Of a stretch of DNA of 64,000 nucleotides, positions 20,829-26,528 are shown piece after piece; positions within the stretch are counted from its first letter, which is position 1; every line of letters starts with the position of its first letter. The notes beneath the pieces are model-generated. The model had not been told where the DNA came from and made no database searches. It saw only the letters and a program-made list of their open reading frames with translations. The stretch is from assembly GCA_016906335.1 (NCBI GenBank), contig JADEYG010000012.1:248001-312000 (forward strand), given 5' to 3'. This DNA is from Novakomyces olei. Its lineage: Eukaryota. The translations under genes and the position numbers were made by a program.

Positions 20829-21303
20829 CGATTTAATTTATCTATCCATTTATTCATTTATCTCTTTATTGCTTTGTTTGTTTTTTGTTTGTTGGTATTT
20901 TATTTTTCTTAAATTCCTACATTCCGACTAATGCGACTTGATACCGCAGCATACATTTGTTGGTCTTTTGCACTTGATGAAGAACGAAATTTTGCAGATT
21001 AGATTAAACATTAGTTTATCTGAATTGTAGAACGCCAGTATTAAAGTAGATTGCGTAACAAAAATATTAGCAACTCTTCAATAAAACATGAAGAACTTTA
21101 AAATAAAATAGTATTTATTACCATATGAATGAACGTGTATAATAATCCCAACCTTCTCTATTACTTGTTCATCGAGTAACATGTCCCAAAATCTTTGTAG
21201 CCGTCTTCCAATATAATCGGTTATTATTACATAGTAGCCAAAGCCAGAAAACAGCCGACAAACTAGAAAAATTCGTCATCAGGGCAATTGATCGAAGTGC
21301 AAA

Positions 21304-23469
21304 ATGACTGATGCAATGGAGAAGCGCAATGATATTGTGAACCCAGACTCGACGCCCGATACGTCCAGTATGGATGAGGACGAGAAAGTTCTTGTAAGCC
21401 TTGATCGGTGAATACAAGGGGAAATGAGAAACTTGTACTGGCGTTTTGGTCGTTCTATCTTGCAAGGGTATGGTGGTAGTAAAGTAGAGAGCACTAATAT
21501 GGCGCGGGTGATAAGGGTGTGTTCCTCACACACTTTTATCTGAGATCATACCGCTCGAACTTGATCTGGACTATACCAGCGAAAGGAAGTCAGAATGCTC
21601 TGTTGTCTCCCCTTTATTTCTAAAATTTTTTAATTTTTAATTTTGTTTGTTTATTCTTATGTTTCTGTATTTTCCGTTTCATTTCCTCGCGCTTTTTTAT
21701 ATCTGTTCGACGTTTTACGTCTTATTATTTTTATTCTACCTTTTCGATTATATTTCTCATTTTGAATAATGTTAATTCGGTGGTAGTATCATCTAGGCTA
21801 CAGGCAAACGCTTCATCGTTCTTTTGGACAGTTTGAAAGTTTTGCTGCCAGCTTTGCGTCACTGTATTCTGTAGGCGGCGTTCGCGTCACATTTACTACT
21901 GGTTTGGCTGCTGGAGGTCCCTTGGCTTATTGGTATGAATTATGACATTTAGATGACATTGTCATATCTCTCTATTATTATATTTTTTGTATTATACTTG
22001 ATACCATTATATTCTCTTCATTTACTTCTGTATTTAATTGTTCAATTTCTGATCTTTCTCTTCTTGCTTCTTTTATTTTTCTAGTTTCCCCTTATCTAAT
22101 TCCCAGGACGAGCTACCTTGTCACATGGGTCTTTACACTGATCACGGCGGCCTGTATGGCAGAGATTTGCTCCGCTCTCCCCGCTGCTGGATCCATTTAT
22201 TTTTGGGCGGCTGAATGTGGGGGTCCAAGGTTCGGACGACTCTTTGGTTTTATTGTGGCCTGGTGGGCAGCAACAGCCTGGTCAACCTTTGTGGCGAGTA
22301 ACAGTCAGAGCGCCACAAACTTTTTGCTCTCAGAAATATCTGTATTTGGCATTGATTTTCCCTCTCCTGACAATGTTCGATTTCGAGCAGTTGCTTGGAT
22401 CGTTGCTGAAGGCATTTTGGCAGTATCAATCAGCCTTAATTTCTTACCCCCAAGAATCTACAAGACTGTATTTAGAGCAGCTGTTTTTGTTATAATGGTT
22501 GATTTCATACTCAATCTTATTTGGCTGCCTATCGGTGTCGTTGAGTCGTACGGGTTTAAATCCGGTCATGATGCAATGCTGGCTCAGTATTACGATATCG
22601 GCCCGGGCGTGTCTCATGGTTGGACATGGTGCCTTTCTTTCCTGGCCAGTGCAGGAGTTCTGGTCGGGTTTGACTCGGCTGCTCACGTTTCTGAAGAAGT
22701 AACAAACTCTGCAATGAGCTCTGCCCGAGGCATTTTTTGGTCGGCTTTTGCTTCAGCTCTTATTGGAGCACCTATTGTAGTTCTGTTTTTATTCTGTACA
22801 CCGGACCTGGATACACTTTACAGCTTGGATGCTCCTCAGCCCTTTGTGCAGTTGTACGCTTTGGCTCTGGGCAAAAACGCTCATATTGCCATGAACGTTA
22901 TCAATATCATCGGGTTGATGTTGAACACAACTGCTGCTGTTGTGGCTGCTTCGAGGCTTATCTATGCAATCGCCCGCGATGGGGTTTTGCCCTTTTCCTC
23001 CTGGATCGGAAAGCCCTCTGACCGGGGACAGCCACGTAATGCTGTTATTGTTATCTGGATAGTTGCTGCTCTCGTGTTGTGTACAATCCTGCCCTCAAAC
23101 GTGGCCTTTACGTCTCTTGTTTCCGCTGCCGGTCTGCCTTCTTTTACTGCTTACGCTCTAGTCAGTTTTGGCAGGTTTTTTTTAACACCCGACAAGTTTC
23201 GAAATTGCCCTTGGTCTCTGGGTCGATGGTCGCACATTATGAACTTCATCTCAATTATTTTCAATCTGTTTGTGACAGGCGTGCTCGTTTCCCCGTACGA
23301 GTGGCCTGTAACTGGGCCTACTTTTAACTATGCTGGAGTAATCTTGGGCAGTGTCACCATTTTTGGTATCATTTCTTGGTTCTTCATCTCGGAAGACAAG
23401 TGGATGTCTTCGCGACAGCTGCTTCTTGTTCAAGAAGCCAATGAGGAGCGGGAGAGCAGGAAGGATTGA
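21304..23469 (+). CDS. thi9: APC-superfamily thiamine transporter, Thi9 orthologue; exons 21304-21393, 21787-21932, 22107-23469
   Basis: Spliced LGYRQTLHRSFGQFESFAASFASL...GGPLAYW...AEICSALPAAGSIYFWAAE...RFRAVAWIVAE...SRLIYAIARDGVLPFS...PVTGPTFNYA matches S. pombe Thi9 as recalled. The intronic TPP aptamer independently supports a thiamine function. Confidence 0.9.
21488..21601 (+). ncRNA. TPP (thi-box) riboswitch aptamer in intron 1 of thi9
   Basis: P2 GCGG 21504-07 / CCGC 21551-54; 13-bp P3 21510-22 / 21528-40; CTGAGA junction 21540-45; CTTGATCTGGACTATACCAGCGAAAGGA (P4/P5, with CTGG/CCAG stem); closing AGAGCA/TGCTCT. Confidence 0.95.
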
Positions 23470-24369
23470 GCTGTTCCTGAGAGTGCTTGATCTTTTACAG
23501 CAAGGATTATTAGAGTAGGCTTTAATTATAATACTAGTAATATAGCAGAATGTCGTATAAAAGAAATAGGCCTCTAAAGAAGCAAAAAAAAAAATTTTAT
23601 AATTAGTTTTGCACAGACAAGCGAAGAAATTAATGAGTATACGAAATTCAGTATATGATGGAATATGATTAACAAAGGGAAACAAAGAAATAAAAAAAGA
23701 TGAAAAAATTAAAGAGAAAAGAAAAAAGAAGAGAAAATCCCGTAACAAAGAATAAACTCATTATAAATCAGTAATATTGTATACTTGATTAGTCCCAATA
23801 TTAATAATATAGGAGAGCTCACCCGATCAGTGTGACTCGGAAAAACCATACACGAATGGCGACTAACGATTGGTGTACGAAAATAAAATTATCCGGTCCG
23901 TAGCGGCCACAGCCTTAATTATGTCATTAAAAACTGCCGGCAATAAACTGGCAAACTTTTCAATTACAGAGCACTGTATAAAAGATTTAAGACTGCAACT
24001 TGACCAAAATCATAATTTATCGTTGCATCCATTGCAGGTCTCTGAATGCTGAAAGATATTGAGTGTAAAAGTAGTGATTGTGGATCGGATTGTTTATAAT
24101 AGCCATTCATTAATGGAATAATTTTCGACTACAGTCGGCGTCGTTTAATACAAGAACGGTCAATACAAGATCGTTCAATACCTTTTTAATCGACGTACTG
24201 AAAAGCCCTTCTTAAACTCATATGCAGACCATAGTTTATGAATACTAAGAATATCAAGGTGCCTTTGCCAATAGCGTAAAATCCCGTTTGGCGCACAACT
24301 TCACACTTCCGATACGAAGCATTCTACAGCTAATTGATTACTTGCAACTTGAAATTACAAACCTCCGCT

Positions 24370-24551: not shown

Positions 24552-26071
24552 ATGACGCTGGATGAAGGAACGCGGACTGTAATCAAGGCCACCGTTCCGG
24601 TCTTGCAGGAACGTGCCGTCGATATAACGAGGACGTTTTACGCAAACATGCTCAAAGCGCACCCGGAACTTTGCTCCGTCTTTAATCTGGAGAATATGTA
24701 TGTCTTTTACTGGTTGGATACGTGCAAGGGACCCACAAGCAGCTATTGATGTAGCCTCGTTGCCTTTTATTCTGATTTCTTTTTCTTCTTATTTTATTAT
24801 TATTTTGGGGCTTATTTGTTCGACTTTCAAATGCTTGCCGATCGGCTCCAGTTACAAGCAAATCCTGTACTGTGCACTAAAGTCACGTATACTGTATCAA
24901 AAGTAAATTACGGGAACCAGAGTTGCCTTGCTTATGAAAACTACACGTTCTACAATCCAATTGAGCCTATTCTAACATGTCTAGGCGAAACGAAAGACAG
25001 CCTCGAGCTCTAGCGGCCGCCTTGCAAGCCTATGCTTCCAATATCGATGATTTGTCTGTGCTGCAGGGCGCAGTTGAGCATATCTGCCAGCGGCACGCGT
25101 CGCTAAACATCGCAAAAGAGCAGTATGCAATCGTAGGCGAGCACCTACTCAAGGCAATGCTCCAAGTTCTCGGTAGCGATGTAGTGACGTCAGCGGTCCT
25201 TGGTGCTTGGGAGCTGGCATACTGGCAACTGGCAAATATAATGATTGACAGGGAAGCGCAGCTGTACAAGGAGGCGCCCTGGAGCGGTTGGCGCGAGTTT
25301 CGAATTGAACGCAAAGTGGCCGAGGCGCGTGATATCACAAGCTTCTACCTGACCCCAGAATCAGGCGACAAAACGGTCAACTTTAACGCGGGCCAGTACG
25401 TCTCCATTTGCGTTTGGCTGGACAATTACGGGATTTATCAGCCTCGGCAGTATTCCGTCTCCGATGCACCGGGAAAATTGCGTATAACGGTAAAAGACTT
25501 GAGCTCTCAACTACCGAATGGTGAGAATGCGCCGGGGCTCGTTTCTCACGTGCTTCATTCTCTGCCTACTGGCGCCATAGTAAAAGTGTCAGCACCACGT
25601 GGGGAATTCTGTGAGTCCATTGCTGCCGACCAATCAGAATTGCAGCAACTGCCCCCGCTCGTACTTGTGTCGGGTGGGATAGGTGCAACGCCGCTTATGA
25701 GCATTCTTGCCGATAACGTAAACCGCGGCACATCGCGACCAATCACGTGGGTTCATGCGTCACATTCCGCTGAGCAAGAGCCTTTTGTACAGCGAATACG
25801 CGAGATCGAACACGACCCCAAGCGCCAATTAACAAGCGCCATTTTTCTCACGGTCGGTGCCAGCAGCCCAGACACCTTCGCGGGTCACGTGGACCTGAAC
25901 AAGATCGCGAGCGCTCTCCATCTCGACCGGAGTGATACGGAATACTTTGTGTGCGGACCACTTGGCTTTATGAAGTCTGTGGACCAAAGTCTGCTCAGCT
26001 TGAAAATTCCCCGAGACCGAATCAAGACGGAAGTCTTTGGTACTGGATCGTTTAAGGCGGGACGCAATTGA
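24552..26071 (+). CDS. yhb1: Flavohemoglobin (nitric oxide dioxygenase), 2 exons
   Basis: Globin IKATVPVL...FYANML...ICQRHASLNIAKEQYAIVGEHLL, FAD-binding GQYVS...RQYSVS, and NAD-binding GGIGATP and FVCGPLGFM. Intron 24698-24984. Confidence 0.95.
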
Positions 26072-26454: not shown

Positions 26455-26528
26455 GCTGGCGTGGCGCAGTCGGTTAGCGCGCTGAACTAATAATTCAGCG
26501 GTCGCCGGTTCGAGCCCGGTCGTCAGCA
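26455..26528 (+). tRNA. tRNA-Ile (anticodon AAT), intronless
   Basis: Acceptor stem GCTGGCG/CGTCAGC with discriminator A; D-arm GCGC...GCGC with A-box; anticodon stem CTGAA/TTCAG around loop CTAATAA; T-loop GGTTCGAGCC; downstream T-runs act as a Pol III terminator. Confidence 0.95.

Follow-up and report, generated by a model that had tools for sequence, protein, structure and literature searches.

The first coding intron of an APC-family permease gene, located in a 64,000-nucleotide stretch of Novakomyces olei DNA (contig JADEYG010000012.1, positions 248,001 to 312,000; the whole stretch is referred to as the window), contains a complete aptamer for thiamine pyrophosphate (TPP). The aptamer is confirmed as a genuine member of its class by a covariance-model match, by its fold and by the covariation of its stems among related loci. 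The intron that holds it is probably an OFF switch resembling that of NMT1, of the kind called 'Type III', in which TPP would act through the choice of the 5' splice site. The elements of this proposed switch are a productive donor (S1), an in-frame stop codon, a candidate alternative donor (S2) lying just ahead of the aptamer and a strand (alpha) able to pair with the 3' half of the aptamer (alpha-prime).

The TPP aptamer

The initial annotation had described a complete thi-box at 21488-21601, with P2, a 13-bp P3, CUGAGA, CUUGAUCUGG-loop-CCAGCGAAAGG and a closing helix, and had named the RF00059 covariance model as the check. When all 64 kb of the window were scanned with Rfam cmscan at curated thresholds, two RNAs were returned, the TPP aptamer and one tRNA. 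The aptamer match (21494-21605, forward strand) spans the full RF00059 model, positions 1-105, and scores 56.5 bits against the gathering score of 54.3 bits that is the curated cut-off for TPP aptamer calls, so this check was passed; its E-value of 2.2e-8 refers to 64 kb searched with 4227 Rfam families. The predicted fold reproduces both the coordinates and the anatomy that had been described. The canonical P1-P2/P3-P4/P5 three-way junction is present in the minimum-free-energy and the centroid folds of 21486-21603, the former at -35.7 kcal/mol (z -2.21; matched by 3 of 200 dinucleotide shuffles).

All the conserved core motifs are intact between 21540 and 21587, namely CUGAGA in J3-2 and ACC...GAAC.UGAUC...GCG.A.GGA in the P4/P5 arm. 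In TPP riboswitches these motifs make the contacts of the ligand pocket, as known from crystal structures. The window aptamer would be expected to bind TPP.

The host gene

A model with three exons and two introns gives a protein of 532 amino acids with no internal stops, and a stop codon lies five codons 5' of the ATG at 21304. The junction between exons 1 and 2 (...DEDEKVL/YHLGYRQTLHR) agrees with the DxxxLxxLGYKxxLHR of full-length homologues; intron 1 is thus a coding intron and not an intron of the 5' untranslated region. The placement of the aptamer inside the first coding intron (21394-21786, 393 nt), as originally annotated, is therefore upheld by the gene model and the homologue junction alike. 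The host had also been called an APC-family permease, and this agrees with the Pfam matches of exon 3, which are to AA_permease_2 (6.8e-47, 160.8 bits) and AA_permease (9.1e-18). In the same Pfam search, with E-values up to 0.001, the protein matched AA_permease families only and had no match to the sodium-solute symporter family (SSF/SLC5). Among the matches listed, the closest relatives of the permease are fungal and about 60% identical (best 61%), and include Pezizomycotina and the Taphrinomycotina genera Savitreella, Protomyces and Saitoella. The annotation of this gene also gains a correct model of three exons in which intron 1 is probably regulated.

Proposed expression platform of intron 1

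Candidate S2 lies 20 nt before the outer helix of the aptamer, at the position held by GTRAGT sites in related loci, and splicing there would keep 74 nt of the intron, including the TGA. The best local duplex between alpha and alpha-prime has -19.7 kcal/mol and was reached by 1 of 40 shuffles. Separate duplex runs on the window gave -18.8 kcal/mol (2 of 60 shuffles) and, in another case, 5 of 200 shuffles; in these estimates the upstream sequence of the window was shuffled, and p is about 0.025-0.033. An example of the pairing is UUGC...GGUAUGG opposite CUAUACC-A-GCGA.

Alpha and alpha-prime form a rod in the minimum-free-energy folds of the whole intron, of 21384-21625 and of 21436-21603, and the aptamer is unformed in them. 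The S2 sequence GGUAUGGU pairs with ACUAUACC (21570-21577, the P5 loop and 3' strand) in these folds. For 21384-21625 the ligand-free fold has -68.0 kcal/mol and the fold with the aptamer enforced -59.4 kcal/mol, a cost of 8.6 kcal/mol. With the aptamer enforced S2 becomes more accessible (mean unpaired probability 0.43, up from 0.22), and S1 is hardly altered (0.27 and 0.29). According to these models the rod and the aptamer are two mutually exclusive folds.

The order S1, stop, S2 and aptamer, together with the competing pairing, leads to a reading similar to NMT1/THI5 and to 'Type III'. At low TPP, alpha would pair with alpha-prime, unfolding the aptamer and burying S2, and S1 would be spliced to the acceptor at 21786 to give the 532-amino-acid transporter. 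At high TPP the ligand would lock the aptamer fold and so free alpha and S2; splicing at S2, or no splicing at all, would then bring the TGA at 21409 into the message and stop translation after 35 residues. Such a transcript would be a likely target of nonsense-mediated decay, and the capacity for uptake would be lowered. The features of the gene, the platform and the aptamer are collected in Table 1.

Table 1. Positions of the permease gene, the expression platform and the TPP aptamer, numbered from the first letter of the window
Feature	Position	Strand	Basis
Exon 1, 30 codons, ATG 21304, ends ...SSMDEDEKVL	21304-21393	+	Gene model, conserved exon end in relatives
Intron 1, 393 nt, phase 0, GTAAGC...TAG, holds the entire switch	21394-21786	+	Gene model, homologue junction consensus
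Exon 2, YHLGYRQTLHR...GGPLAYW	21787-21932	+	Gene model
Intron 2, 174 nt, GTATGA...CAG	21933-22106	+	Gene model
Exon 3 including stop codon, bulk of APC permease	22107-23469	+	Gene model, Pfam match
S1, productive 5' splice site, GUAAGC	21394-21399	+	Gene model, conserved exon 1 end
First in-frame TGA on intron retention, 5 codons past exon 1	21409-21411	+	Read-through ...KVLVSLDR followed by stop
Alpha, putative anti-aptamer strand, complementary to aptamer 3' half	21439-21470	+	Duplex energy, predicted folds
S2, candidate alternative 5' splice site, agg/GUAUGG	21468-21473	+	GT-site list, GTRAGT sites of relatives
TPP aptamer	21488-21601	+	RF00059 match, canonical fold, covarying stems
Aptamer outer helix	21488-21493/21596-21601	+	Predicted fold
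P1	21500-21503/21589-21592	+	Predicted fold
P2	21504-21507/21551-21554	+	Predicted fold
P3, 13 bp	21510-21522/21528-21540	+	Predicted fold
CUGAGA	21540-21545	+	J3-2 motif
P4/P5 arm	21560-21585	+	Predicted fold
Alpha-prime, aptamer 3' half (3' strands of P5, P4, P1 and outer helix)	21573-21600	+	Alternative pairing with alpha

Two further features of the intron were recorded. In the whole-intron fold 21398-21410 is predicted to pair with 21779-21799, a stretch covering the last bases of the intron and the first of exon 2, and this would juxtapose S1 and the acceptor. The tail from aptamer to acceptor (21603-21786) measures 184 nt and is very U-rich, and in relatives about 60-130 nt separate the aptamer from the next coding exon. 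A different anti-aptamer strand was also considered, CUUGAUCGG (21400-21408), a copy of the P4/P5 5' strand that might have paired with the aptamer 3' strand in the manner of NCU01977; it was rejected, as in the folds the partner of CUUGAUCGG lies nearby or at the beginning of exon 2.

Conservation of the aptamer in related loci

Eighty related loci, which are metagenome contigs scanned with the permease alignment, were searched for the aptamer. At the Rfam gathering threshold it was found in two of them (L024 and L031), and a first reading of this result, that most loci have no aptamer, was overturned by three further searches. A scan for the core motifs found it in 24 of the 80 loci. With the E-value limit of the Rfam search relaxed to 0.01, the aptamer was confirmed at 11 of 15 motif-positive loci, with 33.5-47.7 bits. 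Finally model R1, built in this analysis from 19 aptamer sequences, detected the aptamer in 48 of the 80 loci with E-values of 1.2e-10 or lower, on the coding strand in every case. The standard threshold thus passes 2 of the 48 aptamers that a class-specific model finds. P3 carries inserts of about 40-100 nt in relatives (for example L008:1278-1406 and L054:672-805) and these long inserts lower the Rfam scores. Surveys that use the Rfam cut-off probably undercount THI9-linked aptamers.

The stems of the aptamer covary. Among the 19 sequences pairing holds in 88.2% of the cells, and sliding the partners brings this down to 32-44.5%; a compensatory change of both bases is seen in 13 of 27 aptamer pairs. 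Of 500 shuffles, none reached the observed value on four of five measures and one did so on the fifth. In the window the P5 stem reads CUGG/CCAG where CGCU/AGCG is common, a compensated change, and pairs of P2 and P1 are likewise compensatory.

The position of the aptamer is also shared. Exon 1 ends with ...(M/I/Y)D(S/E/A)DE(R/Q/K)xL directly followed by GT at the same place in 38 of 45 entries (37 loci and the window), and the aptamer sits in the same intron position at all 37 loci with a locatable exon 1 end. The shared exon end indicates that the aptamer intron is orthologous across these genes, and the intron position is held in common with relatives about 55-60% identical in protein. The distance from the aptamer to the equivalent of exon 3 ranges from 190 to 549 nt in the 48 loci (median 365 nt) and is 506 nt in the window.

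The exon that follows the aptamer differs between the window and most relatives. In about 20 or more loci it is a micro-exon of about 7-8 codons, reading xxLGYKQ and then GT, followed by a further intron; it is placed 60-130 nt 3' of the aptamer (for example L008:1476-1496 and L031:3703-3723). In the window and in L024 the micro-exon is fused to the next exon and the second intron of these relatives is absent. A search of the relatives for the post-aptamer exon with the pattern LGYK..L.R had no success; in most of them an intron comes directly after the micro-exon xxLGYKQ.

Conservation of the expression platform

The platform was compared in 34 distinct entries (33 loci and the window). In 32 of them a GTRNG site follows S1 and precedes the aptamer, and it has an in-frame stop before it in 31 of these 32. 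In 26 of the 34 the final 34 nt of the aptamer have an upstream pairing element that outperforms at least 95% of shuffles, and this element is situated 0-33 nt before the GTRNG site or overlaps it. Moreover the element tracks its own aptamer, as CGGCGCAUA opposite UAUGCGCG in one case and CGCGCUC opposite GAGCGCG in another. In 23 representatives the mean duplex with the own upstream region was -24.6 kcal/mol and with foreign upstream regions -21.3 kcal/mol, a difference reached by none of 10000 permutations. The window, with -19.7 kcal/mol for its own and -16.2 kcal/mol for foreign regions, ranked 3 of 23.

One clade, formed by L014, L041, L059 and L062, has the non-consensus hexamers GTATCT, GTAGTT and GTAACC at the conserved exon 1 end (S1 at L014:1132). 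A consensus GTATGT follows about 90 nt downstream in three of the four, and a significant alpha was found in none of the four. The switch of this clade may differ in mechanism.

Evidence against the proposed switch and alternative readings

Several observations weigh against an NMT1-like switch in intron 1. The alpha helix of the window is G-U rich and, at -19.7 kcal/mol, less stable than in most relatives (mean -24.6 kcal/mol); shuffling gives it modest significance (p about 0.025-0.03 with 40 to 200 shuffles). No significant alpha was detected in 8 of the 34 distinct entries, which are the four loci of the clade just described together with L033, L060, L077 and L024; the last of these has the exon structure closest to that of the window and yet no significant alpha. 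Splicing at S2 is inferred, as is the direction in which TPP would regulate the gene; a search of public sequencing runs for 21250-23500 listed no RNA run. In Candida DUR31, as reported in Donovan 2018 (PMC5997356), the second donor was barely regulated and unspliced RNA predominated with thiamin. In addition, the related loci are often close to each other, so that the counts given above overstate the number of independent events.

The DUR31 results suggest another way in which a functional aptamer could work, namely by governing the use of S1 itself through intron retention, with the S2-like site irrelevant and the TGA at 21409 still making the switch an OFF switch. According to the same study thiamin chiefly raised unspliced RNA of C. 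parapsilosis DUR31, and control of access to the first donor was suggested (Donovan 2018, PMC5997356). In locus L024 S1 is just 41 nt from the aptamer, and both an S2-like site and alpha are lacking, which means that some relatives must work without S2, and intron retention of any kind meets the TGA after five codons. However, the predicted accessibility of S1 is flat between the two folds and it is S2 that changes. The consensus-like GTRNG just past alpha in nearly all distinct entries would also be hard to explain if it were unused. Control of S1 itself is accordingly judged unlikely for the window, and an NMT1-like choice between S1 and S2 is preferred.

It is highly improbable that the aptamer arose as a chance match or survives as a decaying relic, regulating nothing at present. 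Its score is merely 2.2 bits over the Rfam cut-off, and the modelling paper of 2022 (PMC8786325) describes the aptamers of the thi9 group as being without experimental validation and speculates that their function may have been lost. Loss does occur, since the aptamer is absent from some related loci: among those with at least 700 nt upstream R1 found it in 41 of 59 and found none in the other 18. The aptamer-less loci are L013, L049-L053, L068, L069, L079 and 9 others, some of them 55-62% identical to the window protein, and they may represent losses or paralogues. Against a relic or a chance match stand the E-value obtained over 64 kb and 4227 families, the intact core motifs, the compensatory nature of the changes in P5, P2 and P1, and the orthologous intron position in relatives that have diverged to about 55-60% identity.

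The cargo of the permease has to be considered separately. It is the homologue names that suggest thiamine as the substrate, and among the matches listed 11 of 120 homologues bear the source name 'Thiamine transporter thi9'. The switch could then be real and the cargo a different one (a precursor, or another cation or amine), in which case the label 'Thi9-type thiamine transporter' would be overstated. Pfam places the protein just in the broad AA_permease_2 family, and in the ESM Atlas the window permease falls in generic amino-acid-permease clusters alone. The names of the listed homologues are mostly those of amino-acid, gamma-aminobutyric acid (GABA) or polyamine transporters, and the thi9 names come from automatic transfer. 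Mukherjee 2018 (PMC5882874) likewise describes riboswitch-linked transporters as not assignable to one substrate. On the other hand, S. pombe Thi9 is an experimentally characterised thiamine transporter of the APC type (Vogl 2008 as cited in Donovan 2018, PMC5997356), and control by TPP best suits a cargo related to thiamine. A different cargo therefore seems doubtful, and a thiamine transporter under an NMT1-like switch is retained as the reading of this gene.

Lineage, age of the intron and genomic neighbourhood

Among the matches listed, the Mtr4 fragment encoded in the window has its best identity (75%) with Saitoella, and Taphrina, Protomyces, Pneumocystis, Schizosaccharomyces and Neolecta come next at 72-73%. 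A quick tree of a single gene keeps the window apart from the Pezizomycotina and the Saccharomycotina, both well-supported clades, and gives it a long separate branch; its position among Neolecta, Taphrinomycetes and Schizosaccharomyces has weak support (80 in the Shimodaira-Hasegawa-like approximate likelihood-ratio test, SH-aLRT). The best reading of these protein comparisons is, weakly, that the window comes from a deep, Taphrinomycotina-like ascomycete lineage.

A broader proposal concerns the whole class. The aptamer intron, with its order S1, stop, alpha, S2 and aptamer, would be older than the split from the Pezizomycotina-like relatives; it would have a distinct short-range platform in which one rod both unfolds the aptamer and masks S2, and surveys based on Rfam would be greatly undercounting it. 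We regard the chances for and against this proposal, taken as a whole, as about equal.

The window copy is compact and high-scoring and comes from a poorly sampled ascomycete lineage. The comparison of 80 loci yields a concrete model that can be mutated at alpha, S2 and alpha-prime, and the short P3 together with the second donor inside the competitor helix makes the window intron a convenient construct for a first experiment on the THI9 group.

Just 3' of the permease gene an open frame (24965-26068, forward strand) encodes globin, FAD-binding and NAD-binding domains and is flavohaemoglobin-like. It is followed by a gene for tRNA-Ile with anticodon AAT (26455-26528, forward strand; 65 bits with Rfam, also found by ARAGORN). 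The further neighbours are Mtr4, Prp21-like, RMND1-like, B56, EMC1, RhoGEF and ZIP transporter genes, none of them related to thiamine; the Mtr4, Prp21-like, RMND1-like, EMC1 and flavohaemoglobin-like genes count as housekeeping genes.

Comparison with known systems

To our knowledge eukaryotic riboswitches are rare, few fungal examples have been tested at the bench (NMT1, THI4, NCU01977 and DUR31) and the THI9 group is known from sequence surveys alone. In our searches of full-text literature no experimental study of a THI9 riboswitch was found. The initial annotation had cautioned that surveys may already contain THI9-linked aptamers, and this is indeed reported: Donovan 2018 (PMC5997356), citing Moldovan 2018, lists Thi9 orthologues with riboswitches in Taphrinomycotina other than S. 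pombe, in Pezizomycotina and in Basidiomycetes. The same paper mentions a riboswitch in THI9 of Blastobotrys adeninivorans and states that the THI9 riboswitches await experimental characterisation. A TPPsw-AA group is named in ACS Omega 2024 (PMC11683625), and the amino-acid-transporter riboswitch class of Mukherjee 2018 (PMC5882874) is given there as occurring in Basidiomycota and as absent from the Ascomycota of that data set. As THI9-linked aptamers are already in print, the window copy adds to a known arrangement. It resembles the THI9-group and TPPsw-AA riboswitches described in these papers in that a TPP aptamer is tied to a fungal gene for an APC-family, Thi9-like permease, and differs in its lineage, which has no close relative among the matches listed (best 75% for Mtr4 and 61% for the permease).

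S. pombe Thi9 itself is an APC-superfamily permease of the plasma membrane (Vogl et al. 2008 as cited in Donovan 2018, PMC5997356), and homologues of the window protein bear its name. On the account given in Donovan 2018 (PMC5997356) the riboswitch is reported in the Thi9 orthologues of other Taphrinomycotina and not in that of S. pombe.

The 'Type III' class was proposed by Mukherjee et al. 2018 (PMC5882874) for an internal intron of 200-400 nt with S1 and S2, a stop between them and an acceptor past the aptamer, and all these features are found in the window. In that proposal the TPP-bound form blocks S1, of which the window folds give no sign; the class is described in the same paper as not observed experimentally.

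The riboswitches of NCU01977 and DUR31 (Li and Breaker 2013 as described in PMC5997356 and PMC5882874; Donovan 2018) are, like that of the window, placed in a coding intron, and their hosts too are genes for transporters. In the descriptions of both, the wrong donors lead to premature stops and an alpha strand near the donors pairs with the 3' (P1') strand of the aptamer, which is similar to what is proposed here. Their host proteins belong to SSF/SLC5, whereas the window host is an APC permease and is thus outside that group. Moreover their introns are described as 600-900 nt long, with a pairing that reaches across about 500 nt. In contrast, the window intron has 393 nt, and its alpha overlaps S2 and precedes the outer helix by some 20 nt and alpha-prime by some 100 nt.

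The layout is also like that of NMT1/THI5 of Neurospora crassa (Cheah et al. 2007 as described in Donovan 2018, PMC5997356), where two upstream donors share one downstream acceptor. In that description part of the aptamer is base-paired to the sequence around the second donor as long as TPP is missing, and TPP frees the second donor so that a non-productive mRNA is made; the layout of the window is alike. Unlike NMT1/THI5, the window intron follows codon 30 within the coding sequence, and an in-frame stop lies in the piece that would be retained.

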